Shown here: piece after piece, positions 23,812-64,000 of the stretch | Position numbering within the stretch: the first letter of the stretch is position 1 | How the letters are laid out: each line of letters begins with the position of its first letter | Source of the DNA: an uncultured virus (IMG/VR IMGVR_UViG_3300028048_000125) | Lineage: Duplodnaviria > Heunggongvirae > Uroviricota > Caudoviricetes | Virus record (IMG/VR): IMGVR_UViG_3300028048_000125 | Reading direction: 5' to 3' (one strand) | DNA length: 64,000 nucleotides | The notes under the pieces: generated by a model | The model's database searches: none | Told to the model about the DNA's origin: nothing | What the model saw: only the letters and a program-made list of their open reading frames with translations | Position numbers and translations under genes: made by a program

Positions 23812-24189
23812 TCATTTTGGTTCTCCTTCTGGTGTTGATTTGGTGATTTTGATTGTATTGCATAACGCGCATTTATACAAAAGGCGCCCTGTCGGCTCGT
23901 TAACAAAGTCGGTCTCTGCCTCGACGAAAAACCACTGATGATCACAGTCCTCGTGAAGCTCTTCTTTAATATTGTCAGCCATATCCTCCAGTAGTTCTTC
24001 CAACGATTCAGGTGCATCTTCCATGCTTGCTGAAGCGAGTTGTTTCCACTCTCCTATCTCGATGGATAATATCCTATCATCATCGAAGTAGTAGAGCTCA
24101 ATACCTAGCTCTTTTATTGTTTGCGCCAGCGTACGCAATGCATTTACAGCATAGCGCTTCGCCTCTATGCTGTCATTAAACTGTGTCAT
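23812..24189 (-). CDS. hypothetical protein with C-terminal Zn ribbon
   Basis: CDH...CALC. Confidence 0.6.
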   Translation of the reverse strand: MTQFNDSIEAKRYAVNALRTLAQTIKELGIELYYFDDDRILSIEIGEWKQLASASMEDAPESLEELLEDMADNIKEELHEDCDHQWFFVEAETDFVNEPTGRLLYKCALCNTIKITKSTPEGEPK

Positions 24190-27510: not shown

Positions 27511-28629
27511 TTAGTACTCCTTCTGTTGTTGTAGGTATTCGAGGAACTTGGGCCTGATCATCTTGGCGGCTTCGCTCTTTGCCTGCTTCAGCACCTTCAT
27601 AAAGTTGAAGTCATCAACACTGAACTCTGCCTCAAGGCATTTGATCTCGCCCCCGTGGTCCTTATTGAAGTCCTTGTCCGCATCATCCAGGAAGGCTTTC
27701 AGCAGCGTGCCAAAGTCCTTCTGGGTAATGTGACTGGTGTCCATCTTCGACAAGACAGACATCATGCGAGATTCGGTGACATACTCCATGTAGATGCCAA
27801 ACCACTTTAGATCAAGCTCTGTCATGGGAGACGGAGGATTTTTTACCTTGTTGGTCTTAGTTCCTCTCTCAAGGAAGATCTGGTTCTTGTTCTTGCAGAT
27901 CACACGTTCACCATTGGGGAACCGAAGTTCTCTGCCGGGCTTGATGACAACTCCTTCGACAATATTGTGCTCAAGCTTTGGCAGCCCAAACATCAGATGA
28001 CCAAGCTCATCCTCGAAATCATTGGGGTAGGAGATGGTTTCGTCAAAGGATCCACGAAACATGATCAATTGGCTGTACAGCCCGACTTTTGCACATATGA
28101 ACTGCACCTCATCGGGTGTCAGATAATACGAAGTCGGTGTTGGTGTGCAGATGGTGACGCGGATGTCAAACACAACCCAGCGGTTATCCGGACAGTAGTT
28201 GACGCGGCCTTGGAGTTTCTGCGCACCCTTGACAGGTTCCACGTCAGGATGCCTGTACACTCCTCCAATGAGTTCTCCAAAGCACTGGAACACAACAGGA
28301 TACACATTTGTGCCTACCAGCACCATATCCTTAGTTCCCCGGTTCATTTCCTTGCACCAGAACTCCTTAGCGGCCATGACCTTCTCATCCAGATGGTACT
28401 GGGCAACTACCGAGCGATAGTTATTGAAAGAGTCATATCTGTCAAGCTCTTTATTGCGGGAGCCATAGTGTATCTGGTTTTGCTCATCGACAAAGATCTG
28501 CAGGCTGGTGCCGTCCATCTTCAAGGCAGCACACCACTCTGCACATTCTTTATCGAAGCCATTGTCACGCACAGCCTGTATCCAGGAAGGCGAGATATTT
28601 TCAATTTCCGTATAGCGACGGTAGTCCAT
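27511..28629 (-). CDS. RNA ligase 2 (Rnl2 family)
   Basis: KMDG, FGELIGG, FDI, EGVVIKP, CKNKN motifs; start moved to MDYRR. Confidence 0.88.
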   Translation of the reverse strand: MDYRRYTEIENISPSWIQAVRDNGFDKECAEWCAALKMDGTSLQIFVDEQNQIHYGSRNKELDRYDSFNNYRSVVAQYHLDEKVMAAKEFWCKEMNRGTKDMVLVGTNVYPVVFQCFGELIGGVYRHPDVEPVKGAQKLQGRVNYCPDNRWVVFDIRVTICTPTPTSYYLTPDEVQFICAKVGLYSQLIMFRGSFDETISYPNDFEDELGHLMFGLPKLEHNIVEGVVIKPGRELRFPNGERVICKNKNQIFLERGTKTNKVKNPPSPMTELDLKWFGIYMEYVTESRMMSVLSKMDTSHITQKDFGTLLKAFLDDADKDFNKDHGGEIKCLEAEFSVDDFNFMKVLKQAKSEAAKMIRPKFLEYLQQQKEY

Positions 28630-28989
28630 AGGTTCTCCTAGTTTGCGAATAGTTGTAATGTTAATGCAATGATCAACGCCAGCAGCCCGCCGACAAAACC
28701 AGCCCATAGCGGCATATACTTGATGCTCGGACGGTCGAGCTCTCTATCGAGGTCTGCTTGCAGCTCTTGTTTGAAACGTTCGATGTCTTCTTCTGTTTGC
28801 TCTCGAATATCCTTAAAGTATTCCTCCACCCAGTCGAGCGGTGGATTCGGTGCCTCATAGACTTTCTCCTTGTTTTCTTCCATCAGTGTTTTAAGTTCCA
28901 TTGTTGTTCTCCTTAATAGTAAAAAGGAAGGACGCCTCAGTGATTGAAGCGTCCTGTTATTGGTTTGACAGCCTTGCGGCTGTCTGGGG

Positions 28990-36220: not shown

Positions 36221-36401
36221 TCATATCCACTGCCGGCTCCTGCTGGTGATGCTCGATCAGACGAATGGACTCATCTGCAATGTCACCAATCTGCATAAGC
36301 CCATCATACAGATCGCTGCATTCATCGGCAATGGACATAACCTTGCGGAACCTTTGCAGCAGGATCTCGATAAGTGCTTTATCGTTGTTCATAATGTCTC
36401 C

Positions 36402-36815
36402 TCAGAAAGGGCTGATTGCCCCCTTTAGTTCCCCGATGCGACGCTCCAGGACATCTACAAGTTCCTCAACATCGTCTTCACACTCGATGCAAATCAAGAT
36501 AGCCCGGATGATAGAGATTCGATCCCGATTATACATGCTGAGATCTGCCTCGGTGCTATAGAGCGCTTCTCCAAGAAATCTGCGTGTACATCTGAGCTCG
36601 GTCTTATCGTCCCAACCTTCCAGGCATACACCCTGCTCTGCAAGATCCTGCGCACGTACGGCCATCTGCTGCAGCTCTACCAAGCGTCTGTTAGGATCTC
36701 CAGACAGCATATAGGCATCATGCAACAGCTCCTTAGCTGTATCATCGTCGGTGAGCGCCAGCAAGTCTTCAAGCTCGATGTGATGCGTTATCGTGAAACT
36801 TAGTTGCTCTGACAT
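36402..36815 (-). CDS. hypothetical protein
   Basis: 137 aa ORF with RBS. Confidence 0.65.
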   Translation of the reverse strand: MSEQLSFTITHHIELEDLLALTDDDTAKELLHDAYMLSGDPNRRLVELQQMAVRAQDLAEQGVCLEGWDDKTELRCTRRFLGEALYSTEADLSMYNRDRISIIRAILICIECEDDVEELVDVLERRIGELKGAISPF

Positions 36816-36824
36816 AACACCTCC

Positions 36825-37286
36825 TTACATCGGGCTCTGGGACAGCGCATCTCTGGTTGTGTCAAGCCACTTGTTCAGTGTTGCCTCAAAGGAGCCGATA
36901 TCGTTGCACCTGATATCTGCTGTCAATGAAACCAGCAACTCAATCTGCAGCGTCTCCAGCAGCGACATACACTGTGCATGCGCCTGTATCGCTGTCAGCT
37001 TTTCATAAAGCTCATCCAGCTCAGCACTATCGTCCGGGAAATCAAATTCCGCGTCCTCTGACACGTAAGAGTCGTCTTCCGCGTGCCGGTGGTACAGTTT
37101 GTCAATTCTCTCAAGCCGTTTAAGCTGAATTGATGTGGGTGCCGGTTCCAATTCCCATATCATCCGATAGAGATCCAGCACCCATCCGGACAGATCGAAA
37201 GCCATGCACTGGAAGTCATCTTCCCAGTTCAGTGTTGTTGTGTAGTGAATCAAATATTCACGGTTTTGTATTGTGGGTCTGCTCAT
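36825..37286 (-). CDS. hypothetical protein
   Basis: ATG overlaps the nadA exon 2 stop (ATGA). Confidence 0.7.
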   Translation of the reverse strand: MSRPTIQNREYLIHYTTTLNWEDDFQCMAFDLSGWVLDLYRMIWELEPAPTSIQLKRLERIDKLYHRHAEDDSYVSEDAEFDFPDDSAELDELYEKLTAIQAHAQCMSLLETLQIELLVSLTADIRCNDIGSFEATLNKWLDTTRDALSQSPM

Positions 37287-37414
37287 TCACTAAGCTCCAA
37301 CATTCTCTGGATCGGACGGCGTGCCTCTACAATCGTATTGGCATCCAGTTTGATCTCCGAGTCATCCGGATACTTCAATGCAAGCAGCACATCGCCCAGC
37401 AGGATCTTCTTCAT
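37283..37414 (-). CDS. nadA: quinolinate synthase, exon 2
   Basis: translates MKKILLGDVLLALKYPDDSEIKLDANTIVEARRPIQRMLELSE*, a typical NadA C-terminus continuing CPN|MKK. Confidence 0.88.
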   Translation of the reverse strand: MKKILLGDVLLALKYPDDSEIKLDANTIVEARRPIQRMLELSE

Positions 37415-37507
37415 CTGGCATGAAACTTTCGTTCCTCGCTACTTCAACCAACCTCGTCGACTATCCGGCGGAGCCGGAGTCGTGGACTCGGTTGTCCGTA
37501 GCATACT

Positions 37508-38665
37508 TCAGCCCTGCCCGGGCTGGGAGATATAGTTAGCCAAATTCCTAGCCGCATTGAGGTCTCGATCGAGTTCGAGCCCACAATGCGGACAGACATA
37601 AGTTCGTTGAGTTAGGGGCATCGGGTGACGATGCCCGCAAGATGAACAAAGCTGGGAAGAAGCATAATACCAAGGTGCCTTCTTGAGGTGTTGAGCCTTG
37701 TACTCAAGTTGTCTAAGAACTTCTCCCATACATGCCCTGGAGGCCGCTCTACGAGCGCCTCTTCCGGGCATCTTACGTATCATCTTCCGCACATCCAACG
37801 ATTCAATCACTACAGTCCCGTGGTTATTGGTGACCTCATGAGTGAACTTATGCATGGCATCTTTACGTTTGTTATTGATGCGCTTTTGCAAAGCGCGAAA
37901 CTTTTTCTGAGTCTTTTTGTAACTATTGGAAACTGGATTATTAGCGTTCACGAGGCGAGAGCGATCCATCTTTGCTTGGTAATGTCTGAGCTTGGCTTCT
38001 TCCCTGGAAGCATCTGGCAGGTGCAGCTCTGTGCCATCACTGCACACTGCTGATGTTTTAATGCCGACATCAACACCGCATACTGAATATGGACTCTGAC
38101 AGGTGTGTGGATTGCTGTCTAGTTCAAAAGCAATCGTAACATACCAGTCATCACCTTCCCTGGTAACTGTGTATGATGTTATCTTAGCCTCAAAGCGCGG
38201 CTGTTCAGCCAATGCAATCAACTCATTTCCACAAAGCGCTTTAAGCTTGGGGCATTTGAAGAAAGCTTTAGGACCCCGGTAGACGATAGCACCGTTATAG
38301 TTACCGGCTTGTATCCAGAAAGCTGCTCTATATGCCGATTTCTTTTTGTGGTTTGGTTTACATGCTTTATGTTTAGCAGCTTGTTGGACACCATGCCACA
38401 TGTTAGACACCGCATGTTGTAATGAACATGTTGGTGCATCGTATAACCAGGCATTCACAGGAACTTGCTTATATCGCGTTAATTCCGCAGATAGCTCTTG
38501 TAAACCAAACCAAGGTCTTTTATTATCCTTGGCTTCAACATACCACGCACAGCAGATATCCAGCATATGATTATACACAGCTCGAACATGCCCAAAAAAT
38601 AATGTTAGTACTGGGATTTGGGATCTTGTTGGATATGCTCTTATTCGCTGTCGTACTCTAAACAT
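37508..38665 (-). CDS. tnpB: TnpB RNA-guided endonuclease
   Basis: RAYPT N-terminus; RuvC GVDVG, VIESL, DRDLNAARN; CSSCG/CPHCG zinc finger; start moved to MFRV. Confidence 0.92.
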   Translation of the reverse strand: MFRVRQRIRAYPTRSQIPVLTLFFGHVRAVYNHMLDICCAWYVEAKDNKRPWFGLQELSAELTRYKQVPVNAWLYDAPTCSLQHAVSNMWHGVQQAAKHKACKPNHKKKSAYRAAFWIQAGNYNGAIVYRGPKAFFKCPKLKALCGNELIALAEQPRFEAKITSYTVTREGDDWYVTIAFELDSNPHTCQSPYSVCGVDVGIKTSAVCSDGTELHLPDASREEAKLRHYQAKMDRSRLVNANNPVSNSYKKTQKKFRALQKRINNKRKDAMHKFTHEVTNNHGTVVIESLDVRKMIRKMPGRGARRAASRACMGEVLRQLEYKAQHLKKAPWYYASSQLCSSCGHRHPMPLTQRTYVCPHCGLELDRDLNAARNLANYISQPGQG

Positions 38666-38759
38666 TTGTATGCTGCTATGCAAGTGCTTAATGTGCTTCC
38701 AATAGTTGCTACTATTACAGTAGCACAAACGTAAATAACTATATCTCCATGGAACGAGA

Positions 38760-39065
38760 GATCCACGGTTCTGTTCACCAAGCCTCGCTGGGGCTCAGCA
38801 GGTTTCTTGGCGTTACCCAAGACCACTCACATGCTTTCGCATGTAGCACTGACTATATCATTCACCAATTCCTTGGTGAGAGTACTTCCCCTTTCCAAAC
38901 GCTTGATCGGGTACTCCCTTATGGGATAGTCGATGAACCTTCTTTGCAGCGGGTTTCTCTCGCTGCAAAGCTCGGCTGCTGATTGGCATGCACCTTATGG
39001 TGTTTAGCTTTCCAGCAATTCACTTTCTTATTCGATAACGATTACTCGTTAAAGGAACCTAGAAG
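38760..39065 (-). ncRNA. group I intron ribozyme core, copy 1
   Basis: P AATTGCTGGAAA, Q AATCAGCAGC, R GTTCATCGACTA, S GATATAGTC; GTAA and GAAA tetraloops. Confidence 0.88.
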
Positions 39066-39884
39066 ATTCGGACACACAGGTTCCGGGTCCAGTGTGTAGA
39101 AGATCTTATCAGGATTCTCCCGCTGCATGCGATGGATGATGCCAGATTCTGTACCAATAATGAACTCGTGATGAGCCGATTCCCGTACGAATTTCAGCAT
39201 TCCTCCCGTGGACAGCGCATAGTCTGCCAGTTCAACAACAGCAGGGCTGCATTCCGGGTGGACGAGCACGAGCGCATTCGGATGTGCGATCTTCGCATCA
39301 TTGATATGTTGCGGGAAGATCTTGTTGTGTGTCGGGCAGCATCCAGGCCACAGCTCCAGCTTCGATCCAATGTGCTTATTCAAGTTGGCACCCAGATTTT
39401 GATCAGGGACGAACAACGCAAACTTGTACTGCGGACGATTCCGAATGATAGCCTCCGCGTTGCCGCTGGTAACACAGAGGTCGACCAGTGTCTTGGTTTC
39501 TGCGGTCGTGTTCACATACGCGACAATCGGCATGTCCGGATGACGGAGCTTATAGGCTATAAGATCTTCTTTGGAGACCATATCAGCCATCGGGCAACCT
39601 GCATCCTGATTCGGCAGCAGCACCTGCGCCAGCGGATTCAGGATCTTTGCAGTCTCAGCCATAAAGCGCACACCGCAGAAGACGATCACAGGCGCGCTGC
39701 TTTCTGCGGCTTTACGGGAGAGCTCCAGCGAGTCTCCCACAAAGTCAGCGATATCCTGAATTTCCGGACGTGTGTAGTTGTGGGCGAGTATGATTGCGTC
39801 TCGCTCTTTCTTGAGTTTAGCGATCTCCTCCAGACAAAAGTCTTTATTGTCTGTAGAGATACTTTCGATTGTTGACCTGTTCAT
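39066..39884 (-). CDS. nadA: quinolinate synthase, exon 1
   Basis: ILAHNY, GDSLELS, FCGVRFMAETAK, AGCPMAD, YVNT, PDQNLG, GCCPTH, HPEC, STGGM, GTE, VCPN; spliced product 316 aa. Confidence 0.95.
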
Positions 39885-39950
39885 CCTGCTCTCCTTAAAG
39901 CATCGATCTGGTCTTATATCCCTGGTGTCCACTCTTGATGTTTTCGAGTT

Positions 39951-40292
39951 TCACTTGGTACCTCCTTGTGCTCTATGAGCGGTGTCAAAGCGTAAGCCAC
40001 CAGCATTGTGGTCGTCAATGTAAACATTGGCGAACACTTTGCGGGGATTGTTATGGAAAGCTTCACAAAGTTCAGGCAGATTGTCATTAGCAGCATCCGG
40101 AGGGATACCGAGCTTTGTTAGAAAGGCAAGCGCTTCATCAAGCAGCTTCCCCTCCCTCATGGTGTAGAGGATCCATTTGTCTCCATTTGCTTTCAGATCT
40201 CTGATGAACTGCTCAGCTTCTGGGTTAATGGCACCTATGCCAGGGAACTTGTTCTCCACAATGGTGCCGTCGAAGTCGATTGCGTATATCAC
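39951..40292 (-). CDS. small HAD-superfamily hydrolase
   Basis: IDFDGT, YT.R, YIDD. Confidence 0.8.
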   Translation of the reverse strand: MIYAIDFDGTIVENKFPGIGAINPEAEQFIRDLKANGDKWILYTMREGKLLDEALAFLTKLGIPPDAANDNLPELCEAFHNNPRKVFANVYIDDHNAGGLRFDTAHRAQGGTK

Positions 40293-40753
40293 TTCTCTGG
40301 CCTCTGTATTCTGTTTACCTCGCTGTTGATCATTGCTGGATCACACGAATATAATCCCTCTCTGCAAATTTGAGTATCTGGATAGCACATGTAATCTTTA
40401 AACTCTGTACAGAACTGCGTTTCATGCATAAGGTGGGAACATGTTGTGCAACAAGCCGCTACATTAATGCCGTTAACCATATGCTGTGTTTTCTTCTCAA
40501 GATCCTCCTTGAGCTTTTCTACATTAGCCTGAAGCGCTTTTATAGCTGCTTCTGCTGTAGAGTACAAATTGTCAGGATATCCTGACCAGTTAGACGATGC
40601 TGTGTCTCCATACTCTCCTACATAATATCTAGCTGCTTGTAAAGACCAGGTAGCTTTTGCAAGCACATGATATCTTATAAGACGAAATGGACCATTGTCT
40701 ATACAATCGTAACCATAGTAGTCTTTACCTACTTCGATCTGTTCGATATTCAT
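40289..40753 (-). CDS. family B protein with Cys-rich tail
   Basis: IEVGKDYY ... LYSTAEAA. Confidence 0.65.
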   Translation of the reverse strand: MNIEQIEVGKDYYGYDCIDNGPFRLIRYHVLAKATWSLQAARYYVGEYGDTASSNWSGYPDNLYSTAEAAIKALQANVEKLKEDLEKKTQHMVNGINVAACCTTCSHLMHETQFCTEFKDYMCYPDTQICREGLYSCDPAMINSEVNRIQRPEK

Positions 40754-40889
40754 TTGTTCTCCTCTTGTTCAAGAACCAGGATTTTCTGCAGGAACTACAG
40801 GCAGCTGTTCTAACTCATACGTAGATTCGATATGATGCTTGGATGGCCGCCATGTGAGCAGTTTGGTTAGTCCGAACATAAAGCTCCTG

Positions 40890-44655: not shown

Positions 44656-45162
44656 CTACTGCATCAGAAGAACGGGTTCACCGTCTCCTGTTTGCTTCAT
44701 ATCGGTAATCCTCTGGTTGGAACTGCCACGGAAAGGCAGATCAGGATCACGCAGCGCCTGCACGAACCTACCGTCCACAAGGACATCGACATTAGCCAGT
44801 ATATTTTTCACATAAGGCGTTTGCATAGCTCTCAGCTGTTCCAGCGTATAACCACTGTACAACCAAATATCTTTTGTTGGTTGTTCGCTACGTATACGAT
44901 GCACAAGGGACCATATGTACTCTTGATGAGACGGATCCATAGGTTCACCGCCCAGGAATGTCAACCCTCTTACATATGGCGCTTTCAGATACTCCATTAT
45001 GGCATCCTCCACTTCTTTCGTATAGGGTTTGCCAAAGTCCTCGTTCCATGCCCTGCTGTTAAAGCATCCAGGGCATTTGTGAGAACAACCGGAGACGAAT
45101 AGGGATACTCGGACCCCGAATCCGTTAATCATATCAGCCTTATATATCGTTACGTAGTTCAT
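44656..45162 (-). CDS. nrdG: anaerobic RNR activating enzyme
   Basis: NGFGVRVSLFVSGCSHKCPGCFN, LGGEP, VDGRF, FRGSSNQR. Confidence 0.95.
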   Translation of the reverse strand: MNYVTIYKADMINGFGVRVSLFVSGCSHKCPGCFNSRAWNEDFGKPYTKEVEDAIMEYLKAPYVRGLTFLGGEPMDPSHQEYIWSLVHRIRSEQPTKDIWLYSGYTLEQLRAMQTPYVKNILANVDVLVDGRFVQALRDPDLPFRGSSNQRITDMKQTGDGEPVLLMQ

Positions 45163-45168
45163 GTTGTG

Positions 45169-48100
45169 TTACCCTATGTGCTTAATTCGATGGTGGACTT
45201 CGTCCTGCTTGCCAAGATTGAAGTGCCTGTAATCCGTACTGCAGTAGCCCGTTATGCGGCGTAGCCTTCTGACATCCGTGCTGCCGCATTTAGGGCATCT
45301 ATCCGGGATATCTCCCAGATAGCCGCAGCCTTGGCATTGATCGTTCGGAAGGTTGGCGCCGATATATGGAATATCATGTTCCATAGCATAGCGGATCAGT
45401 TCTTCCAAACCCTCAAGGTTATTCTTGACATTACCATCTAATTCAACCCAGGTTACACAACCGGCCGTGGTGTAGCCGGTCAGCTGAGCTTCAAGGTCGA
45501 CCTTCTCAAAGGCGTTCATCTTGCGCCAGACAGGCACATGGAAGCTGTTTGTGAAGAACTCCTTGTCGCTGACGTTAGGTATCACGCCATAATGCTCTCT
45601 GAACTTCTTAAGAGCCGTGTAGCAGAGCATCTCGCTTGGAGAAGCGTAGACCCCAAAATTCATCTTGTACTTGGAGCGCAACTCGTTGATCTTATCCTTG
45701 TACAGTTGCTCAATGCGCTTGGCCAACTCCATACCCTCTGGCGTGGTTTGGTCTGCTCCGATGAGGAGCTGCAATGCTTCTGCAAGCCCAAGTTGCCCGA
45801 TTGCAAACGTTCCATGTTTGAGAGCGCTTTCGATGCCTTCTTCCGGTATATAGCCCACCATCGTGCGGTTGGTGTACATAAAGGGGGCCGCAGAAGGTGG
45901 CTGAGCCTTGATGATCTCGAAACGCTCGATCAGAGACTCTGCTGCATCTTGGATCTTGATTTCCAGCAGCTGCATGAAGGCCTCAACGTCACGATTTGCA
46001 AGCATCGCCAGCTCCGGCAAGATGATCGTTACAGGAGCGATGTTACCACGACCGTACTTCTGTGCACCAGAGAGGACGTCTACATCGGTATCGCCTTTCT
46101 GAATTACATCAGCGATAGCCTTTCTGTAGCTGTCTTCTGCATTCAGATCAAAGCCGTTTACAGTACGACAGTTGTGAGAATAAATGCCGTTCACTGTAAA
46201 GTGCTCAGACTCCGTTGTAACGTCATAGCTATAATCGACCTTGTCGTATGGTGTTATCTGCGTTACGTTGCAAATATCAGAATCTATAGCACCCCAACTT
46301 ACGAATTTGTGATCTTCATGAAGGTGGGCACGTTTCTTTCCTGATACCAGATACGAAAACAGCTCGTAGGATGCAGGAAACTCTACACGCCAACGAATCT
46401 TGGACGGGTCTGCTGCATTATATCTGTTACGATACATAACAGCATTCAAACCAATATCCTTAGCGAGCAACATCTGCCCCATAGCCAGCTCTCTGTTTGT
46501 CGATCCTATCTGCACTCGGATAGTGTTACCAGAGTCATTGATATAACCATCGGCATCTATCATACCTGCCATAAACGACAGCTTGTGGTGTCGCGCTGCA
46601 TTAAAGATAAAGTTCGGTATCTTGCGCTCAATCTTGGTATTGCCTTCAAACGCATTCATATAATCGCGGCAAAGTTGGCTTGACCGCTTTACATAAAGCT
46701 CAGCATAATCACCCTTGATGCCTCGATGTTGTTCACGTCTGGTACAGTTATAACCAAGATCGTTGAAACCTTTTTCTGCCTCGTCGAGCAAGTCTTTTTC
46801 ATCAAGCCCTAAAGCAAGATTCAAAGAACCCGCTAGACTGGCATCACAAAGCACAAGACCTTCAAGCCACATCTCTCTGTCGAACTTAGGCTCTTCCGCC
46901 TGACTGTTATTATTCACATCTCTGTGGATAGTATCACCAACCAGAAGGTCTCTCGCAAACACCACACCCCTATCAACGACCTCAAACGGATGGTCTGATG
47001 TCACATCCAGCGTTCTGCCACCGGAAAAGTCAACGGTCATCCACTGAGCCGACAAATTTTTGATAATGCGATGCTGCTTGACATACCTCTGTGCGACACA
47101 GTCGTAGATACTGACATCTGGTGTGTTGATGTACAGATCTCTGCCATTAGGCTGTACCTTGATGTCATAGATACCTGCTAGTCTATTCCAGGCGCGCTGG
47201 AACGTTTCAACAAAACGATGCTCACCAATCTTGTAATCGATGATTGACTCTCCTGAAACGCAGCCCATGCAAGTCATTGATTCATAGTCTCTTTCGACAT
47301 TATCTACCTCAAGACTGCCATCAACGACTTTAAGCATAAGCTTATTAGCCACCTCAGGCTTCTCGGTCAATCTTGCAATAAGGGCAGCCCGCTGCTCCTC
47401 GGTCAGTTCTCCTATAACGCGACGTTTAGCTTCTCTATCGGATGCTAACCACGCCTGCTGATTCGACCAGTCACCATTGAGGAACATCGGATACAGCCGC
47501 TTTGCCGTGCACTTCAGGGCAAGCTGGAACAGATCGTAATTAGGGTCCTTCGGATACAGGTTAACGCCCTTCTTGCACACGAAGATCGTGATAGGGAAGA
47601 TAGCTGTTGTATGCAGCTTTCCTATACCATCCAGGCAACACAGAAGCATCTGCTCAGTGATCAACCTACCTTCCGGCTCTGTGCAAAGTCCTGCATCCGT
47701 TGACGAGAATGGAAGTTGCGAACCCGATCGAGCAAGGATTGACACCAGGTTATGGAACAGTCCTTCCATTGCCTGATGAGCTTCTTTCCTGGTATCCTGA
47801 ATTGCACATACTTTGCGGGTTGCATCAAGCTTTGTGCTGGCGAACTTGAAGTCATCGTCAGTGAGTCCTGTCAGCCCCATGTACCATGCCACAAATGCGT
47901 TCTCTATGCTTTCTAGTGCATCGTCATCCAGCGCGTACCAGGAAGCCTTTGTCGGATATTTCCAAAGCAGCGCCTTCAGCTCTTCACTTGGCTGTTCTTC
48001 TGTCAGTTCACGATCAAACATGTAATCCTCGAACACACGCTTCAAATAATGTGCTTTAAAGGATTTCCTGACATACGGGACCATAGCAAAGTCGATGACA

Positions 48101-48759
48101 GCTGCGCAGCCGCCGAACATCTGCGTCGACTGAGACTGCAGATAAACGACCAGCTGCTGAAGCGCAGAGCTGATGTAATTCGGGGAACGCAAATCACCCT
48201 GTCTCAGCACGACGCCATCCGCCAAAAGTTTCGGAAGAGGGAGCTGCAGGCAATTATGCTCACCGGTCGCCCAATGCTCCATATCATGTTGATATACAAT
48301 ATTTTGCAGATGATCATTGCGTGTTTTGTCAGACATCTTAAAGTTCAGCGCCACATCCTTTAATACAAGAATAGTCGCTTCTCCTATACGTCCTCCAAAG
48401 CTGTTCTCATCGACATTGGCGTTTTGATTCTGGACATGCTTTGCTGACAGCTTATCCAAGATACCATTATACAGCTCGATGTTGCTGCTGCGTGCCATCG
48501 CATGCCTTTCCCTATAACGGATGAAGGCGGTAGCGACTTTCAGTAGGCCTCTCTTCATCAAAGCCTCCTGCACCAGGTCCAGTACGCTTTCCTGGTCTAT
48601 TTCAGGCACATCGCCTATAGCCTGCACCACATCCTCCGTCACACTCAGAGCGATTGTGTCGCTGGACATATCGCAGGCTTCCAGTGCCTTTTTGATGGCT
48701 ATCGTTATCTTATTACGATCGAAATCGACAACGCTTCCATCACGTTTAATTACGTTCAT
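45169..48759 (-). CDS. nrdD: class III anaerobic ribonucleotide reductase with ATP cone and intein
   Basis: VIKRDG ATP cone, NQNAN, HD...NC, MG|CRT, TNSFH, Zn ribbon, RITGY glycyl radical motif. Confidence 0.95.
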   Translation of the reverse strand: MNVIKRDGSVVDFDRNKITIAIKKALEACDMSSDTIALSVTEDVVQAIGDVPEIDQESVLDLVQEALMKRGLLKVATAFIRYRERHAMARSSNIELYNGILDKLSAKHVQNQNANVDENSFGGRIGEATILVLKDVALNFKMSDKTRNDHLQNIVYQHDMEHWATGEHNCLQLPLPKLLADGVVLRQGDLRSPNYISSALQQLVVYLQSQSTQMFGGCAAVIDFAMVPYVRKSFKAHYLKRVFEDYMFDRELTEEQPSEELKALLWKYPTKASWYALDDDALESIENAFVAWYMGLTGLTDDDFKFASTKLDATRKVCAIQDTRKEAHQAMEGLFHNLVSILARSGSQLPFSSTDAGLCTEPEGRLITEQMLLCCLDGIGKLHTTAIFPITIFVCKKGVNLYPKDPNYDLFQLALKCTAKRLYPMFLNGDWSNQQAWLASDREAKRRVIGELTEEQRAALIARLTEKPEVANKLMLKVVDGSLEVDNVERDYESMTCMGCVSGESIIDYKIGEHRFVETFQRAWNRLAGIYDIKVQPNGRDLYINTPDVSIYDCVAQRYVKQHRIIKNLSAQWMTVDFSGGRTLDVTSDHPFEVVDRGVVFARDLLVGDTIHRDVNNNSQAEEPKFDREMWLEGLVLCDASLAGSLNLALGLDEKDLLDEAEKGFNDLGYNCTRREQHRGIKGDYAELYVKRSSQLCRDYMNAFEGNTKIERKIPNFIFNAARHHKLSFMAGMIDADGYINDSGNTIRVQIGSTNRELAMGQMLLAKDIGLNAVMYRNRYNAADPSKIRWRVEFPASYELFSYLVSGKKRAHLHEDHKFVSWGAIDSDICNVTQITPYDKVDYSYDVTTESEHFTVNGIYSHNCRTVNGFDLNAEDSYRKAIADVIQKGDTDVDVLSGAQKYGRGNIAPVTIILPELAMLANRDVEAFMQLLEIKIQDAAESLIERFEIIKAQPPSAAPFMYTNRTMVGYIPEEGIESALKHGTFAIGQLGLAEALQLLIGADQTTPEGMELAKRIEQLYKDKINELRSKYKMNFGVYASPSEMLCYTALKKFREHYGVIPNVSDKEFFTNSFHVPVWRKMNAFEKVDLEAQLTGYTTAGCVTWVELDGNVKNNLEGLEELIRYAMEHDIPYIGANLPNDQCQGCGYLGDIPDRCPKCGSTDVRRLRRITGYCSTDYRHFNLGKQDEVHHRIKHIG
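46171..47262 (-). mobile_element. intein (364 aa) with LAGLIDADG endonuclease
   Basis: starts CVSGES, block B TSDHPF, LEGLVLCDA and FMAGMIDADG, ends YSHN followed by Cys. Confidence 0.93.
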
Positions 48760-49589: not shown

Positions 49590-50606
49590 TCAATCTCCTT
49601 TGTTGTGTTGAATGAGCCGCTGCATTTCTTCAAGCTGCTTGTCGAAATCACAAAGCTCAAATGTGCTGTCGAGTCTGCAATCTCTAATGTAGCGCTGCAC
49701 CGGATAAGATGCTTTCAGAAGCTCCCAGATCTTGCATGCCAGCAGTCTGGCTTGAGGATGTGCACCCTTTGGCAGCCGAAGATTCAACAGATACATCCAA
49801 TTCAGAAGAGAACCTGACATTACAACCGTTGTCGCTGTACTGAGCGGCAGCACATTCCTGGCAGCTTCCGGAGCAATTTTGTGCTCGATAAGGAGCCGAT
49901 ACGCTGCTATGGATGCTGCACAAGTGTTGTACCATGTCTGGTGTTCAGCAGATGCCGGGTCGTATGCAAACGCAAACGGCTCCGGGAGGATGACCGCGAA
50001 GGGATGTCTTGAGAAATTGACATACCTTGTAGATTGCTGATTGACAGAGGGCTCCGGCACATATTCAACTGAGTAACTTGTATAGCCGTTCTCATATCCG
50101 CTGTCATCATACGACATGGTGCGATGACGGAAGAACTCAGTAGCAACACCTCTGTCAGTGATCATTTCGATGACTGCATGGTCTGGTGCTAGCTGCACGG
50201 CATCCGTCTCATAGAGATCTAGCGATGGATCATACGCTGACATGTACATATAAACATCTCTCAGATTACCTGCCACATACTCGCCTCGATCATCCTTGCC
50301 TCGATAGAAGCCCCCACGTGTCAGGCTCCTGTTCGACCAAGGATAATCTCCGGACGACGCGGCATGATAAAGACCATGAACATAACATCTCATAGCGTTG
50401 TCTGGGATCTCGTTTATATAAATATGTATATACGCATGTTCCAGCGGTGTGTAATGCCCTCTGTTTGTCAACGCTTTGACAAAGGGTTTGGCCGATCCTT
50501 CCATGATCTTATCCGTACTCGCATAGCAAACACGAGCAGCATACTCGATCAACTCCAGCGGCCTGCGCCCTGTTATCAGTTTCGCTTCTTGCTGTATTAC
50601 TTCCAT
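49590..50606 (-). CDS. thyX: flavin-dependent thymidylate synthase
   Basis: AARVCY, GHYTPLEH, RHR...QQSTRY, PEAARNVLP, LRL...AHPQ; start moved to MEVIQ. Confidence 0.88.
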   Translation of the reverse strand: MEVIQQEAKLITGRRPLELIEYAARVCYASTDKIMEGSAKPFVKALTNRGHYTPLEHAYIHIYINEIPDNAMRCYVHGLYHAASSGDYPWSNRSLTRGGFYRGKDDRGEYVAGNLRDVYMYMSAYDPSLDLYETDAVQLAPDHAVIEMITDRGVATEFFRHRTMSYDDSGYENGYTSYSVEYVPEPSVNQQSTRYVNFSRHPFAVILPEPFAFAYDPASAEHQTWYNTCAASIAAYRLLIEHKIAPEAARNVLPLSTATTVVMSGSLLNWMYLLNLRLPKGAHPQARLLACKIWELLKASYPVQRYIRDCRLDSTFELCDFDKQLEEMQRLIQHNKGD

Positions 50607-50702
50607 AGGCTCACCGTGTGAAGATGGCAATGATACCTGCCACAAAGCTCCAAACGACAAGCCCCACGAAGATACCAGCAAATGCGCCAAGAATAGTCAG
50701 CA

Positions 50703-59300: not shown

Positions 59301-59487
59301 AGCGGTTCTCCCGTTTCAGTGCACTTGCAATGCATGCCTGAACATCACGCGACAATGTGAAGTTCCTGGTCACGTCCAGTGCGCTCTCGAAACATTTCTC
59401 AAAATTGTGTTCTGTCAGCATAGGAAGCTTCGTAACCTGTGGAAGCACCTTCTGCGGACGTTTGCGTTGTTTGATCGATTTAATCAT
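59293..59487 (-). CDS. small basic protein inside the Ubl operon
   Basis: 64 aa ORF overlapping both neighbours. Confidence 0.5.
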   Translation of the reverse strand: MIKSIKQRKRPQKVLPQVTKLPMLTEHNFEKCFESALDVTRNFTLSRDVQACIASALKRENRCE

Positions 59488-60421
59488 TCATATCCATCCC
59501 AAGGAATCTATCCGCCGGCATGATCTCTGTGAACTTGAAAGCTTTCATGGATTCCAGATCAGAGAAGACTCTGGCAAGCCTAATCATATGAAGGATGCTG
59601 CTTCCGTTATGCGAATACCGGCTAAGCAACGCCTCATATTCGTCAACTTTCGGCAAATCTTTGTATGCACGCTCGGCTGAAAGCTTATCTCTGTCGTCCA
59701 GCAGATCATAATTGAACTGCGAGTTGAAGAAGCGTTGATAAGTCAGCTCGATTGCCACAGCTTCCGTTACTTTGACTCCTGGTGGTACGTCATAACTTGT
59801 ATCGCCCCAACAGATATTACCGCTGTCAAAGATATTCGGGAAAGGCAGATGACATACCTTGGTCTTCTCAAGGTCGTTCATATGTTCAGGTACTGCCACC
59901 ATCATTACCTGATCAGGTACATTGGCAGCTGTAAGCTGAACCCTGAGCCACATGCGAGGATGATAAATATGCAACCTCTGATCAACACCCTGGAGATCCA
60001 TCTCGAACTGGGTAGGTGGGATCTCCACAGTGATATCTTTGGCTCCGGCATCCAGTACACACCACCGAATGAGTGGATACTTCAGATTCGGTGTAATGGC
60101 GATCTTCTGACCTTGCAGCAGTCTCTCGGCAAACGCATCAAAGAAGACATCTTGAATGTCTTTGATGTGATAGCGTGCAACGTTATCACCCAGAATGCGC
60201 AACACCTGCTCTTTGGTTGAGTCTTTAATGACCGTGATATGTTCTTTGTCTCCCTTCAGCGTTGGTACCACTCGCGTGATAAATTCATCCACTGTCATCT
60301 CTTCCAGAGAATCAAAGTGAACGGCCGTAACGACGCCTCCATGCTGATGGAACAGATCGGACTGTCTATCTACAAGGTGCATAAGACCTGTAGGAAACGT
60401 GCTGTCAATGTCACCGATCAT
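59480..60421 (-). CDS. prokaryotic E2 (UBC-like) protein
   Basis: LPFPNIFDSGNICWG with active-site-like Cys; FFNSQFN. Confidence 0.75.
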   Translation of the reverse strand: MIGDIDSTFPTGLMHLVDRQSDLFHQHGGVVTAVHFDSLEEMTVDEFITRVVPTLKGDKEHITVIKDSTKEQVLRILGDNVARYHIKDIQDVFFDAFAERLLQGQKIAITPNLKYPLIRWCVLDAGAKDITVEIPPTQFEMDLQGVDQRLHIYHPRMWLRVQLTAANVPDQVMMVAVPEHMNDLEKTKVCHLPFPNIFDSGNICWGDTSYDVPPGVKVTEAVAIELTYQRFFNSQFNYDLLDDRDKLSAERAYKDLPKVDEYEALLSRYSHNGSSILHMIRLARVFSDLESMKAFKFTEIMPADRFLGMDMND

Positions 60422-62369
60422 TTAGTAGTTCCTTAAATTGTTGTTCGTTTATGATTTTGATCCCTAGCCTTTCGGCTTTGGAACGCTTGGACCCGCCACC
60501 CTCGCCAGCCAGCAAATAAGAAGTTGAAGATGAAACCGATGACACAAACTTGCCACCGTGATCTTCTATCAGCTTCTTAATCTGATCCCTGCTCTGCGAA
60601 AGTGTCCCAGTAATGCAAAATGACAGACCTGTGAGTTTTTCGCTGACAAGCTCAGTCTTCACCTGCTCCATACAAAGACCCAGCAATGACAGATCATTGA
60701 TTAGGGTTGCTTTATGTGGACTGTGAATACTGATAAAGATGGAACGAGCTGTGATCTCGGCAAAGCCTTCAATCTCTGCAATCTCAGGAATAGAAGCTTT
60801 TAGCAACGGAAGCATAGACCCGAAATGCTTTGCTACGATCCTTGCATTGGTTGTACCTATGCCATCGATACCTATTGCGCACAGAACACGGTCGAAAGGC
60901 TTCTGCTTCGACTTTTCGATCTCAGCGAGCACAGAGTCTGCTTTCAGATCTTTGCTAATACCAGGAAGCTGGAGATCTTCCTTTGTTAGCTTGTACAGAT
61001 CCGCCGGGGAATGCAGCTTACCCTTCACGATAAGCGCATGGATCATGGCGTCAGCCATGCCCCGTATGTCCATACACTGCCTGCTTACGAAATAGCAGAT
61101 CTCTGCCTGCAGCTTCGCAACACAGTCGTCATTAGGACACAGCAATGCGGCCCCATCACGAACAAGCGCAGCTCCACACTCTGGACAAAGCCCCGGTATT
61201 GGAACCTCGGCACCACCCATTGACTCAACGACATGGTCGAGTTGAGGGATAATCTCTGCTGCCTTATAGACAGCCACCATATCGCCGAGCTTAAGATCCA
61301 TCTCTTTGATGTAGTCGATGTTATGCAGACTGGCATGGGTCACAGTCGATCCGCACAGACCAACCGGATCCAAGACAGCCACAGGTGTCAGTGTGCCTTT
61401 ACGTCCGACTTGCCAAACGACATCCTTCAGCTCTGTAACAGCTTCTACCGGTGTAAATTTGAAGGCAATGGACCATTTAGGATCATGTACACCCTCACCC
61501 AGCTCCAGCCGTTTGGCTCTGTCGTCTGTCTTGATAACAGCCCCATCAATTGCATACGGGATGTTTGCTTCATCAGACTTCAGGGACATGATCACATAAT
61601 ATGCGAACTCACCCGGATCGGCCATACGATTGGACACAAAGTTCATCTGTGGCGTCAGGAACCCATTCTCCTGCAGTATGTTGAGCATATTGCACTCTGT
61701 ACCTGTGTTCAGCCCTGGAATATCATACGCATAGAATGTGAGCCGTCTGCAGCGCGTGACTCTGGGATCTTTGTTTCTAACGCCGCCTGCTGCGGCGTTA
61801 CGCGGATTGGCGAACAGTGGTGCTCCTGTAACCTGGCGTTCGAGATTCAGCGTCTCGAACTCATGCTTATGGATAACCACCTCGCCACGAACGATCAGTT
61901 TTTCCTCTTTGATTTTCACCGGGATGGACTTGATCATCAACGCATTCTGCGTAACATCTTCGCCAACATCCCCATTGCCACGAGTCGCTGCCCGAACCAG
62001 CATATGGTTCTCATAGAACAGGACCAATGTTAAGCCGTCCAGTTTAGGCTGTACGACATAACCTTCACCAGCTAACGCCAGCGTCCGGTCCACGAAACGA
62101 TGAACCTCGTCAGCCGTAAACGCATTTGCCAGTGACAGCATCCGTTGCGGAAATGGAACCTTGTCAAAGCTGCTTACCGGATGACCTCCTACACGAGAAG
62201 TCGGGCTGCTCGGCAGCTTGATCGATGGATCCGCTTCTTCCATCTCTTTGAGCCTCCGCACAATTGCATCATAGTCTGCATCGGACATGATGGGTGCGTC
62301 GAGCTCATGATAGGCCCTCTCGGCTTCGAGTGCCTTACTTAGCAGTGCCTTGTAGCTGTCTTGCTGCAT
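60411..62369 (-). CDS. ligA: NAD-dependent DNA ligase
   Basis: SDADYD, MLSL, KLDG, TRGNG..GEDVT, RGE, ANPRNAAAG, DG.VIK, HhH, Zn finger, BRCT. Confidence 0.96.
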   Translation of the reverse strand: MQQDSYKALLSKALEAERAYHELDAPIMSDADYDAIVRRLKEMEEADPSIKLPSSPTSRVGGHPVSSFDKVPFPQRMLSLANAFTADEVHRFVDRTLALAGEGYVVQPKLDGLTLVLFYENHMLVRAATRGNGDVGEDVTQNALMIKSIPVKIKEEKLIVRGEVVIHKHEFETLNLERQVTGAPLFANPRNAAAGGVRNKDPRVTRCRRLTFYAYDIPGLNTGTECNMLNILQENGFLTPQMNFVSNRMADPGEFAYYVIMSLKSDEANIPYAIDGAVIKTDDRAKRLELGEGVHDPKWSIAFKFTPVEAVTELKDVVWQVGRKGTLTPVAVLDPVGLCGSTVTHASLHNIDYIKEMDLKLGDMVAVYKAAEIIPQLDHVVESMGGAEVPIPGLCPECGAALVRDGAALLCPNDDCVAKLQAEICYFVSRQCMDIRGMADAMIHALIVKGKLHSPADLYKLTKEDLQLPGISKDLKADSVLAEIEKSKQKPFDRVLCAIGIDGIGTTNARIVAKHFGSMLPLLKASIPEIAEIEGFAEITARSIFISIHSPHKATLINDLSLLGLCMEQVKTELVSEKLTGLSFCITGTLSQSRDQIKKLIEDHGGKFVSSVSSSTSYLLAGEGGGSKRSKAERLGIKIINEQQFKELLNDR

Positions 62370-62400: not shown

Positions 62401-62453
62401 CTGTCATGATTATATACCAGGCGCTGCCTGGAGCCAATCTTCCTGCTTCAACT

Positions 62454-63572
62454 TCAGCGAGTACTCGCTGAATCCACAGGCACTTCGGGCCTGACCGGCC
62501 CTGCATTCTTCAAATTGATTGCGGCATTGAGATCGCGGTCGATGACCGCTCCACAATGCTCGCATTTATACACACGTTCACTTAAATCGATATGTGGTTT
62601 CACAGCACCACAGGAAGAGCACCTTTTGGTTGATGGGAAGAACCTATCAACCTTATGGTATTCAAGTGCCTTGTATTTGAGCTGCTGTAGGATCATTCCC
62701 ATCATTGAGGCATTAAAGGATCGTCGTAATGACTTGAATTGCGCTTTATCCTTCATTTCCTGTATGTGCAGATCCTCTGTTACAACAATCCCGTGGCTTT
62801 TGGTGATCGCTGTGGTGAACTTATGTGTCACATCCTTACGGATGTTATTAATCTTGTTTTGAATACGCTGTTTCTTGAGAAGAGCTTTGGCTCTGTTGTT
62901 GGAGCCTCTTTTCTTCCTATTGATAGCTTGTTGAGCCTTCTTGAGCTTGGCATCAAGCTTTTTGAGGCTTTCAGGAGCATCGCAAATGGTGCCATCAGAT
63001 GCAACCGCCACATGTTTCAATCCGACATCTATGCCAACTGCAGAGTTCAGATTATTTGTCTGCGGCAGCGGATCTGGAAGCTCATATTGTATGGAGACAT
63101 GCCACTGACCAGCATAATGACTGACAGTGTAACTTGTTATCTTGCCTTCAAATCTAGGGCGTTCAGCAAGTCTCACTCTGCCTATATTTGGAAGGGATAT
63201 TCTGTCTCCATATATTCTAGCTTTGTCATTAGCAACTGTAAAGCTATCCTTTCTACCTTTCTTGTGGAATGTAGGATACTTTCCAGTGCCTCTCCAAAGA
63301 TTTTGAAATGCTTCGCCAAGATTCTTTATGGCGTTCTGTTGTGGACTACATGCTATTTCATGCGCCCACTCTGGCTTTGCTGCTGTCCATATATTGGATA
63401 ATATACTAAAGGATGGTTTCTGCTTAGAGTGATCTTCCATCCAATCAGAATACATGGACTTCCACTTATCCAGTGCCCAGTTATACACGTATCGTGCGGT
63501 GCCTGCTGTCTTTTTCAGCATCACCTCTTGCTCCTTTGTAGGATACATGCGTATTAGATGGGCTCTATGCAT
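62454..63572 (-). CDS. tnpB: TnpB RNA-guided endonuclease
   Basis: RMYPT; GIDVG, VTEDL, DRDLNAAIN; CSSCG/CEHCG. Confidence 0.94.
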   Translation of the reverse strand: MHRAHLIRMYPTKEQEVMLKKTAGTARYVYNWALDKWKSMYSDWMEDHSKQKPSFSILSNIWTAAKPEWAHEIACSPQQNAIKNLGEAFQNLWRGTGKYPTFHKKGRKDSFTVANDKARIYGDRISLPNIGRVRLAERPRFEGKITSYTVSHYAGQWHVSIQYELPDPLPQTNNLNSAVGIDVGLKHVAVASDGTICDAPESLKKLDAKLKKAQQAINRKKRGSNNRAKALLKKQRIQNKINNIRKDVTHKFTTAITKSHGIVVTEDLHIQEMKDKAQFKSLRRSFNASMMGMILQQLKYKALEYHKVDRFFPSTKRCSSCGAVKPHIDLSERVYKCEHCGAVIDRDLNAAINLKNAGPVRPEVPVDSASTR

Positions 63573-63669: not shown

Positions 63670-63975
63670 TATAACCATGGTTCTGTTCAACAGGTATCGC
63701 TACTACCTGCCAGGTTTCCAGTTGTCAAGCTGGACCACTCCCATGCTTTCGCATGGGCACTGACTATATCATTTACCTATTCCTAGGTAAGAGCACTTCC
63801 CCTTTCCAATAGCTTGATCGGGTACTCCTGTTAAGGATAGTCGATGAACCTTCTTTGCGGCGGGTTTCTCTCGCTGCAAAGCTCGGCTTAGGATTAGCAT
63901 GCACTGCTGTGTTTAGCCTTCCCTAAATTAACTTTCTTGTTCGATAAGGATTACTCCTTAAAGGGACTCTTACGA
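63670..63975 (-). ncRNA. group I intron ribozyme core, copy 2
   Basis: P AATTTAGGGAAG, Q AATCCTAAGC, R GTTCATCGACTA, S GATATAGTC. Confidence 0.88.
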
Positions 63976-64000
63976 ATCCTGAATCACGGGGTCATTCCCA

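Follow-up and report, generated by a model that had tools for sequence, protein, structure and literature searches.

A TnpB-encoding, TnpA-less IStron interrupting nadA in an uncultured cattle-gut phage

The nadA element among described IStrons

The closest described relatives of the element reported here are the group A IStrons (CdISt1 and the CdiIStrons of C. difficile), in which a 5' group I ribozyme is followed by tnpB and by a right end bearing the omegaRNA, the final U of the 5' exon is paired to a G, the 3' terminus is CAG, the splice sites are the ends of the element, and the intron is of subgroup IA2. Their insertion sites lie downstream of TTGAT, ATTAT or TTTAT, as given by Tourasse et al. 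2014 (PMC4227781). Group B (IS607-type) IStrons follow a GG, terminate in CGG and show G-C pairing at the 5' splice site, according to a 2026 review (PMC13565253). Group B IStrons are also on record from C. botulinum phages, namely CbISt3 and CbISt4 of phages c-st and D-1873, and the same group includes an ORF-B-only member, CsISt1 (PMC4227781). A preprint on IStron function by Zedaveinyte et al. (10.1101/2023.11.20.567912) describes IStron omegaRNAs as three stem-loops upstream of the element boundary. For the C. botulinum CboIStron, a group B element, TnpB homing has been shown experimentally: TnpB and its omegaRNA jointly cleave the empty site, and splicing competes with guide formation. 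Because ORF-B-only copies (PMC4227781) and TnpA-less copies (10.1101/2023.11.20.567912) are treated as IStron members in these texts, a missing tnpA is no bar to membership, and the review already says that TnpA-less IStrons could spread via intron homing (PMC13565253).

The element considered here is a 1651-nt insert that splits nadA on the minus strand (39065..37415) of an uncultured cattle-gut phage, within the 64-kb stretch of DNA that was analysed (hereafter the window). By its sequence we classify it as an IStron, given its 5' ribozyme, the tnpB that it carries 3' of that ribozyme, and the exact regeneration of the gene upon its removal. It has the same order of parts as group A, the same pairing of the exon-final U to G, the same CAG terminus and the same coincidence of splice sites and element ends, and it shares the lack of a full-length TnpA with all 8 C. 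difficile copies (10.1101/2023.11.20.567912). In contrast to group A, it resides in a bovine-gut phage instead of a Firmicute chromosome, and it contains no tnpA fragment of any kind. Its 5' flank, CGAAT, is not a group A motif, nor are the GCTAT, TCGAT and AGGAT of its relatives, the final AT alone being shared. The terminus CCAG, and the ACAG of a second IStron in the window, each match the group A terminus TCAG in three of four letters. None of the group B features is present: exon 1 closes with AAT, the terminus of the insert is CAG and the 5' splice site has a U.G pair.

A further comparison is with phage group I introns that carry protein homing endonucleases, such as T4 td with I-TevI. 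Like these, the nadA element is a putatively self-splicing intron in a gene of nucleotide or cofactor metabolism, and it is likewise predicted to spread through cutting of intron-less alleles during mixed infection. Unlike I-TevI, its nuclease would be RNA-guided and would take its specificity from the flanking exon, not from a protein-DNA interface. Its gene is placed on the 3' side of the catalytic core, and about 1.4 kb separates that core from the 3' splice site. The initial annotation overstated the novelty of this arrangement: phage, ORF-B-only and TnpA-less IStrons, as well as homing by TnpB, are already in print (PMC4227781, 10.1101/2023.11.20.567912 and PMC13565253). The nadA element is a well-formed further example of a known IStron type and no new system. 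Literature searches returned nothing joining IStron with rumen, and nothing joining quinolinate synthase, bacteriophage and auxiliary metabolic.

The split nadA gene and the boundaries of the insert

Exon 1 of nadA (39066..39884, minus strand) comprises 273 codons with the C-terminal end ...EPVCPN. It matches positions 1-256 of the Pfam NadA profile (E 4e-103), NCBIfam NF006878 (353.8 bits; cut-off 294) and NadA in the PDB (E 4e-68). Exon 2 (37283..37414, minus strand) contributes 43 codons (MKKIL...RMLELSE, 37414..37286) followed by a stop, and matches Pfam NadA positions 257-295 with 19.2 bits, which taken alone is under the 27-bit cut-off. Pfam coverage is contiguous across both exons, without gap and without overlap, and computed removal of the insert gives an open NadA frame of 316 aa. 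The cysteine of VCPN, which we take to be a cluster ligand, aligns with the last of three conserved cysteines in solved NadA structures (query 271 with 1wzu chain 256). Two intron-less NadA homologues of 317 aa each, P0121 at 92% identity and P0122 at 87%, are continuous through VCPN/MKKIL, and the exon 2 protein is 100% identical to the C-terminus of P0121. The profile coverage and the computed join thus agree with the initial annotation, which had placed the break after VCPN at the third Cys motif and the missing C-terminus in frame 1651 nt downstream; the two homologues just named are intron-less counterparts of the kind it proposed to look for in related phages.

The whole IStron (37415..39065, minus strand) begins CTTCTAGG... 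and finishes ...CATGCCAG. Its group I ribozyme core (38828..39075, minus strand), which spans P1 to P9, was recognized by RF00028, the one general group I model in Rfam, over the full model (1-253) with 66.1 bits against a gathering score of 50 (E 1.5e-14). P1 (39055..39069, minus strand) consists of GAAT/CT, the loop TCT and AGGTTC, where the slash marks the 5' splice site with its U.G pair; the last nucleotide of exon 1 is T and that of the intron is G. Both the group I junction rules (exon-final U, U.G in P1, intron-final G) and the ribozyme core that had been noted from the sequence are hence confirmed, the latter by a covariance model. A site-matched P1 with a U.G pair, refitted to different exons, was found in 4 of 4 elements when pairs were counted by script. 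By eye, no convincing P10 helix joining exon 2 to the internal guide was seen. Rfam searches of the whole window, at E up to 0.05, returned only the two group I introns, and no tRNAs were found in the window.

The boundaries of the nadA IStron are exact. Its 3' end, ...CATGCCAG, is common to relatives at four other sites, and the five elements (the nadA element and those at loci L036, L037, L038 and L039) are conserved to ...TTTCATGCCAG and unrelated directly beyond it, conservation halting exactly at 37415/37414. Removal of the element also restores frames in phase 0 at L037 (284 aa) and at L038 (618 aa, DNA-polymerase-like).

A joined form of the gene is present in an RNA library. In run X3, a 402-nt contig consists of 39439..39066 followed by 16 letters that match the start of exon 2 exactly. 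This exon-exon joint is a single assembled contig with a depth of 3.2, found as a loose end only and not listed as a formal joint. It derives from a variant strain, with 8 differences in 374 nt and a divergent 12-nt end. Given this variant origin, the existence of intron-less alleles and the possible presence of DNA in RNA libraries, it may stem from a strain without the intron and not from spliced RNA. In the DNA runs X2 and X5, the 5' junction is bridged solely in the unspliced form. The X3 pieces of the intron over 37968..38758 show 0 differences, against 3-8 differing sites in the exon contigs on either side. Of the 10 differences listed for exon 1 in the X3 contigs, 9 are silent if each is considered by itself; two fall in codon 171, which reads H to Y. 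This pattern points to purifying selection.

TnpB, the 3' scaffold and the relatives of the element

The tnpB gene (37508..38665, minus strand; ATG at 38665, stop at 37510..37508) encodes 385 aa, and homologues of 386-388 aa that align from this ATG support the start codon. The protein scored 207.5 bits with NCBIfam guided_TnpB (cut-off 100), and higher with IS200_TnpB (191 bits) than with IS607_TnpB (164 bits), both under their own cut-offs; it contains three Pfam domains, OrfB_IS605, Cas12f1-like_TNB and HTH_OrfB_IS605. It matches ISDra2 TnpB (8h1j; E 7e-34), with D199, E288 and D368 aligned to the catalytic positions. In an alignment of 19 homologues at 59-100% identity, D199 and D368 are present in 19 of 19 and E288 in 17, the other two having D, and the four cysteines of the CxxC...CxxC zinc finger occur in all 19. 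Judged from these alignments, the active-site triad and the zinc finger are intact, and the earlier reading that TnpB retains all three RuvC acidic residues holds. The same is true of the reported lack of a transposase in the insert: the distance from the ribozyme match to the tnpB ATG is 162 nt, tnpA is absent from the element even as a fragment, and no match to transposase families was found in 83 of the 93 window open reading frames of at least 70 aa. The 162-nt segment (38666..38827, minus strand), made up of peripheral hairpins and the tnpB leader, has no room for tnpA; it is collinear with the corresponding segments of L037 and L038 and 90-92% identical to them.

The right end of the element (37415..37546, minus strand) forms an omegaRNA-like scaffold of three stem-loops and a closing long-range helix, overlapping the last 9 tnpB codons. 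Across the five elements, this scaffold, a conserved block of 131 nt, has a mean identity of 93%, compared with 77% for the adjacent coding DNA and 24% for the flanks. Its predicted fold has 36 pairs (z = -4.19), 2 of them compensatory; because both compensatory pairs come from the same two sequences, L036 and L038, they may reflect one lineage. The scaffold had no match in Rfam, and a covariance model built from it (R1) matched only its five training sequences; elsewhere in the window it gave nothing, neither an orphan copy nor a match at the second IStron. The name omegaRNA is used for it on position and architecture only. By analogy with the IS605/IStron model, nucleotides 1-20 of exon 2 (37395..37414, minus strand) are the predicted guide-encoding segment and target half-site, and CGAAT at the end of exon 1 (39066..39070, minus strand), which is also the 5' strand of P1, is the predicted TAM position. 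Taking GAAT for the TAM is guesswork, as the three 5' flanks of the TnpB clade (CGAAT, GCTAT and TCGAT) agree only in the final AT.

The second IStron of the phage (62401..63975, minus strand) has a ribozyme at 63985..63740 (RF00028, 61.9 bits) with the P1 GGAT/TC and GAGTCC, a tnpB at 63572..62454 with TnpB Pfam domains, and the end ...CATGACAG; its 3' boundary is a probable one, placed solely by the likeness of this terminal octamer to that of the nadA IStron. The two IStrons are 97% identical in the P5/P6 segment, and their TnpBs are 34% identical. The same scaffold and nuclease sit in at least five unrelated phage genes, and the P1 guide is refitted in all three copies with a recovered 5' end.

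Searches of public collections found few other relatives. Among GenBank phages, the DNA search gave no close relative, only three records in each of which 87 nt matched the ribozyme at 77%, and the protein searches gave NadA at no more than 48% identity and TnpB at no more than 31%, which makes the TnpB distant from named ones. In IMG/VR, NadA was at most 49% identical across 34 loci, no relative of the nadA-element TnpB was found, and a 24-nt ribozyme word had 0 matches. A 23-nt scaffold word matched one IMG/VR locus, L041, whose contig, like that of L037, is 52,027 nt long, with overlapping coordinates. The sole IMG/VR relative of the second IStron's TnpB was L040 (29%). GTDB genomes contained no relative by either the TnpB profile or the scaffold word.

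Proposed homing and competing explanations

Our assessment is that the insert is probably a TnpA-less, IS200/IS605-like (group A) IStron that splices itself out of nadA and whose TnpB homes by means of an RNA guide. The 5' end of about 240-400 nt would fold into the group I ribozyme, its internal guide pairing with the last four bases of exon 1 and placing the U.G pair at the cut site, and self-splicing would excise all 1651 nt to give a 316-aa quinolinate synthase. In the unspliced transcript, the 3' end of about 130 nt together with the first 16-20 nt or so of exon 2 would constitute the omegaRNA of TnpB. TnpB would then cut element-free nadA alleles, where the TAM at the end of exon 1 directly adjoins the guide match at the start of exon 2, and during mixed infection, repair by recombination with a genome that has the intron would install the element at the cut site, a process that amounts to intron homing. 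The element's own copy would be spared, given that ...GCCAG precedes the guide match there instead of the end of exon 1. The initial annotation had likewise proposed that TnpB acts as an RNA-guided homing endonuclease, with intron-less nadA of co-infecting phages as its target. Such predicted homing fits the anatomy and the published IStron and IS605 biology, because the nuclease appears intact, the scaffold ends at the exon 2 boundary and intron-less alleles occur naturally.

Homing does not account for a family at five or more unrelated sites, and this spread, which homing alone could not produce, favors the view that the element is a non-autonomous transposon with IS200/IS605 DNA mobility through TnpA supplied in trans by another phage element, a co-infecting phage or the host. 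TnpB would then merely restore the element after its excision, and phage-to-phage homing would be incidental. Such a status is consistent with the terms non-autonomous or immobile applied to all 8 C. difficile IStrons, which have no full-length TnpA (10.1101/2023.11.20.567912), and with an imperfect palindrome at the right end (CGACTCCGGC...GCCGGATAGTCG) of the kind bound by TnpA; moreover, the window covers 64 kb of a 76-kb contig. But the null transposase search over those 83 window frames and the 162-nt gap before tnpB speak against it, the 5' flanks do not have the fixed tetra- or pentanucleotide that a Y1 transposase requires, and the first ~13 nt (P1) vary per element, so there is no conserved left end at the cleavage site. 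We consider in-trans transposition possible but doubtful. The non-uniform flanks and the refitted P1 hint that the elements relocate by some means besides Y1 transposition, perhaps through recombination that swaps the ~13-nt P1 segment together with the flanking guide. More speculatively, and with little confidence, the rumen-phage elements as a group could be self-sufficient RNA-guided homing introns without a transposase, in which TnpB replaces the protein homing endonuclease and modules are exchanged between co-resident elements.

Two further explanations dispense with homing at this locus. The element could be a stranded relic that is competent for splicing and inherited vertically, its TnpB being nuclease-inactive or kept for an RNA role such as tuning splicing via the 3' end. 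TnpB and omegaRNA binding antagonize splicing in the C. botulinum IStron (10.1101/2023.11.20.567912), and the low identity to GenBank phage TnpBs means that activity is not transferable from a close relative. We nevertheless find the relic rather unlikely, in view of the triad and zinc finger conserved among the 19 homologues, the presence/absence polymorphism between close nadA alleles, the near-identical 3' ends in different genes, and the invariance of the X3 intron pieces against the differing exon contigs around them. Alternatively, nadA could be broken, with inefficient splicing at this site leaving the phage with a truncated NadA that ends in ...VCPNLLGSFNE. Near-identical C. difficile IStron copies vary widely in splicing efficiency (10.1101/2023.11.20.567912), and the sole evidence for the joint, the X3 contig, is ambiguous. 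Against this stand the complete protein identity of exon 2 with the end of intron-less P0121, the purifying selection suggested by the exon 1 differences and a P1 matched to the nadA exon, so that we regard a broken nadA as very improbable.

Overall, the nadA element leaves the understanding of how IStrons work unchanged. It is a clean natural TnpB-only IStron from an uncultured cattle-gut phage, and it indicates that a group A-like IStron, with U.G at its splice site, exists beyond Firmicute chromosomes, with flanks unlike the published target motifs, which bears on how IStrons choose new sites. Public data hold every piece for probing RNA-guided intron homing from phage to phage, namely an occupied site, two empty sites (87-92% protein identity), a sharply bounded, conserved scaffold and an RNA-library contig that may be the spliced product.

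Structure of the nadA element

On the minus strand, which carries nadA, the element and all other genes treated here, nadA begins at 39884; its frame parts from the NadA profile at 39066, just past ...EPVCPN, and its final 43 codons are found at 37414..37286. Taking out the intervening 1651 nt (39065..37415) gives, as a computed join, an open 316-aa frame, and the Pfam NadA profile continues across the exons with neither gap nor overlap (1-256 in exon 1, 39066..39884; 257-295 in exon 2, 37283..37414). Exon 1 on its own passes the NCBIfam NadA equivalog. The Cys of VCPN, which we take to be a ligand of the NadA cluster, aligns to the last conserved Cys in solved NadA structures, thus placing the insertion point two codons past the third cluster-Cys motif. 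The split at this motif and the in-frame 316-aa product are therefore as the initial annotation had described them.

The group I core that it had claimed is borne out by covariance-model search, with the whole RF00028 model of Rfam matching at 39075..38828 (-) with 66.1 bits. The junctions obey group I rules: P1 is GAAT/CT paired with AGGTTC (slash, splice site), with a U.G pair at the splice site. In the other elements P1 reads GCTAT/GT with ACGTAGC, CGAT/TT with AAGTCG and, in a second IStron of the window, GGAT/TC with GAGTCC; its sequence is unlike in each element, yet it pairs to its own exon in all four, with the U.G position identical. RF00028 is also matched in two loci with related TnpB elements, L037 (65.9 bits) and L038 (61 bits).

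The tnpB gene (38665..37508, -; 385 aa; guided_TnpB, 207.5 bits) retains all three RuvC acidic residues, with D199, E288 and D368 on the catalytic positions of ISDra2 TnpB (E 7e-34). Among 19 clade members, the first and third positions are D in all, the second is E in 17 and D in the other two, and the four zinc-finger Cys are kept throughout. Between ribozyme match and tnpB lie 162 nt of hairpins and leader, which is too short to leave room for tnpA, and a scan covering 83 of the window's 93 ORFs found no TnpA, in agreement with the reported lack of a transposase. The final 131 nt (37546..37415, -) form a 3' scaffold that overlaps the last nine tnpB codons; its predicted fold (z = -4.19) has three stem-loops, with a long-range helix closing the whole.

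Metagenome contigs, the largest of ~200 kb, encode ~25 TnpBs that belong closely to this clade (59-78% identity). At the DNA level, we compared the nadA element with four distinct relatives (L036 to L039); a further copy, L035 (1.2 kb), does not differ from the window. The five distinct elements are alike up to ...TTTCATGCCAG and dissimilar from the very next base. Mean identity is 93% for the scaffold, against 77% for the adjoining upstream coding DNA and 24% for the flank. Two scaffold pairs have changed on both sides yet still pair, both in the same two sequences. L037 and L038 are sufficiently long for the 5' half to be visible; both have the same tnpA-less order as the nadA element, and removing the element from either locus leaves the frame open over the joint in phase 0 (284 aa in L037; a 618-aa polymerase-like protein in L038). 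The L037 contig appears to be a viral record in IMG/VR (a record with overlapping coordinates). Overall, we are highly confident that the nadA insert is a true IStron and that its ends are placed correctly, and the observation of a TnpA-less IStron splitting nadA is confirmed.

It is a further example of an already described type. IStrons in the C. botulinum phages c-st and D-1873, as well as ORF-B-only copies, are listed by Tourasse et al. (2014, PMC4227781), and all eight C. difficile IStrons are reported to lack full-length TnpA in the preprint by Zedaveinyte et al. (10.1101/2023.11.20.567912). Group A IStrons end in TCAG and insert after TTGAT, ATTAT or TTTAT (PMC4227781). The nadA element has the splice-site chemistry of this group and a CAG end (CCAG), but fails the target motif. 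Its lineage did not turn up in the searched literature on IStrons and TnpB introns; the tree in Fig. 1D of the preprint may already include TnpB-only phage clades.

Empty sites and contigs across the junctions

Intron-less nadA in relatives, which the initial annotation had proposed looking for, was found by an exon 1 search: two NadA homologues of 317 aa each, P0121 (92% identical) and P0122 (87%), are uninterrupted across ...EPVCPNMK(K/R)ILLGD..., and exon 2 is identical to the last 43 residues of P0121. Each is called as one gene on its contig, so that this phage nadA also occurs in alleles that lack the intron.

Contigs of two RNA-library runs (X3, X6) and two DNA runs (X2, X5) were mapped to 36400..40800. 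The 5' junction is spanned unspliced in X2 and X5, and the 3' junction is spanned unspliced by contigs of X3 and X6. In X3, a contig of 402 nt at depth 3.2 runs from 39439 to 39066, and the 16 letters after this match the first 16 nt of exon 2 exactly, an exon 2 side so short that the joint was not formally called. This contig is from a variant strain. The predicted junction is thus present in the RNA-library data, but an intron-less strain could explain it: the joint is not proof of splicing, because the strain is variant, alleles without the intron are known and DNA may be carried over into RNA libraries. We consider that the nadA element probably splices.

The X3 differences from the window form a mosaic. 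The element contigs (37968..38758) have none, whereas each contig of exon 1 or of the gene downstream has 3-8 differences; for exon 1, 10 differences are listed, nine of them synonymous taken singly and two lying in codon 171 (H to Y), and seven differences are crowded into 39366..39399. This pattern would fit a recent spread of the element, albeit in small numbers. Among the X5 contigs are some from additional relatives of the ribozyme, with loose ends at 38911 and 38944.

The second IStron and the phage

A second TnpA-less IStron lies at 62401-63975 (-), with RF00028 at 63985..63740 (61.9 bits), a TnpB of 372 aa (63572..62454) and the predicted end ...CATGACAG. It is directly upstream of the NAD-dependent DNA ligase ORF (62369..60411, -), and just 25 nt of its 5' exon are within the window. 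Comparing the ribozyme regions (38666-39065 and 63573-63975) with each other and with L037/L038, the P5/P6 segment is 97% alike between the window's two elements and 53-57% alike to L037/L038, whereas in the P9 periphery the second IStron is 88-95% and the nadA element ~64% alike to L037/L038. Their TnpBs are only 34% identical. The ribozymes are mosaic, which suggests that IStron lineages, also those residing in one phage, have exchanged sequence by recombination or gene conversion.

The window (source contig, 76,092 nt) reads as part of a large bovine-gut phage; the runs that cover it well are bovine gut metagenomes, and its ORFs encode NrdD with an intein, NrdG, ThyX, dUTPase, RNA ligases, a sigma factor and a free-standing HNH endonuclease with NUMOD4 motifs (20304-21284, -). 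The NrdD (anaerobic ribonucleotide reductase) ORF (45169-48759, -; 1196 aa) carries a further selfish element, an intein with a LAGLIDADG homing endonuclease, and is followed by NrdG (44656..45162, -). The ThyX ORF (49590-50690, -; 366 aa) has its Thy1 domain in two stretches, solely from residue ~173 onward, suggesting that the N-terminal part is extended or carries an insertion. NAD-related genes comprise nadA, the DNA ligase gene and a cytidylyltransferase-like gene (13408-14073, -), possibly coding for a nucleotide adenylyltransferase. The named cellular NadA nearest to the phage protein (67-70% identical) are from Victivallales, Lentisphaeria and Kiritimatiellia MAGs, a weak hint from likeness to a host outside Firmicutes, where IStrons are best known. 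Adjoining the ligase, three neighbouring ORFs (57025-60421, -) with matches to ThiF (E1-like), a prokaryotic JAB domain (23.4 bits, under the Pfam 25-bit cut-off) and prokaryotic E2 family D are a phage-encoded ubiquitin-like conjugation set. Profile matches also identify an RNA-repair set, namely an RlaP-type nucleotidyltransferase (16231-17286, -), a Pnkp-like kinase-phosphatase-RNA ligase 1 fusion (756 aa; 24186-26456, -) and an Rnl2-type RNA ligase (27511-28707, -).

Proposed TnpB-guided homing and spread

Published IStrons are spliced at the very ends of the element; their omegaRNA spans the 3' end of tnpB and extends into flanking sequence, and their TAM is immediately next to the left end. 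For a C. botulinum element, TnpB homing and a conflict between splicing and guide have been demonstrated (10.1101/2023.11.20.567912). The nadA element shares this layout. Under the IStron model, the exon 1 end would be the TAM, and the guide would comprise the first ~16-20 nt of exon 2. TAM and guide match would meet solely in the element-free allele, whereas in the occupied allele ...GCCAG precedes the guide match. During mixed infection, TnpB would thus cleave nadA that lacks the element, which would then be copied into the cut gene by repair. The structural part of the initial annotation (IStron in nadA, boundaries) stands, while its homing by TnpB is carried over from the published model and its TAM is not readable from the flanks, because AT alone is common to the three flanks of this TnpB clade and P1 needs AT too. 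We put the chance that TnpB-guided homing operates at even or slightly better.

Homing cannot have moved the family to the five unrelated genes that it occupies, and the obvious rival, a transposase supplied in trans, would account for this. But the flanks are non-uniform, a conserved left terminus is lacking (no two copies share their initial ~13 nt), and the scanned 83 of 93 window ORFs include no TnpA. According to a 2026 review (PMC13565253), intron homing could spread IStrons that lack TnpA but have an active TnpB. The main value of the nadA element is as a natural system with known sites of both kinds, occupied and empty.
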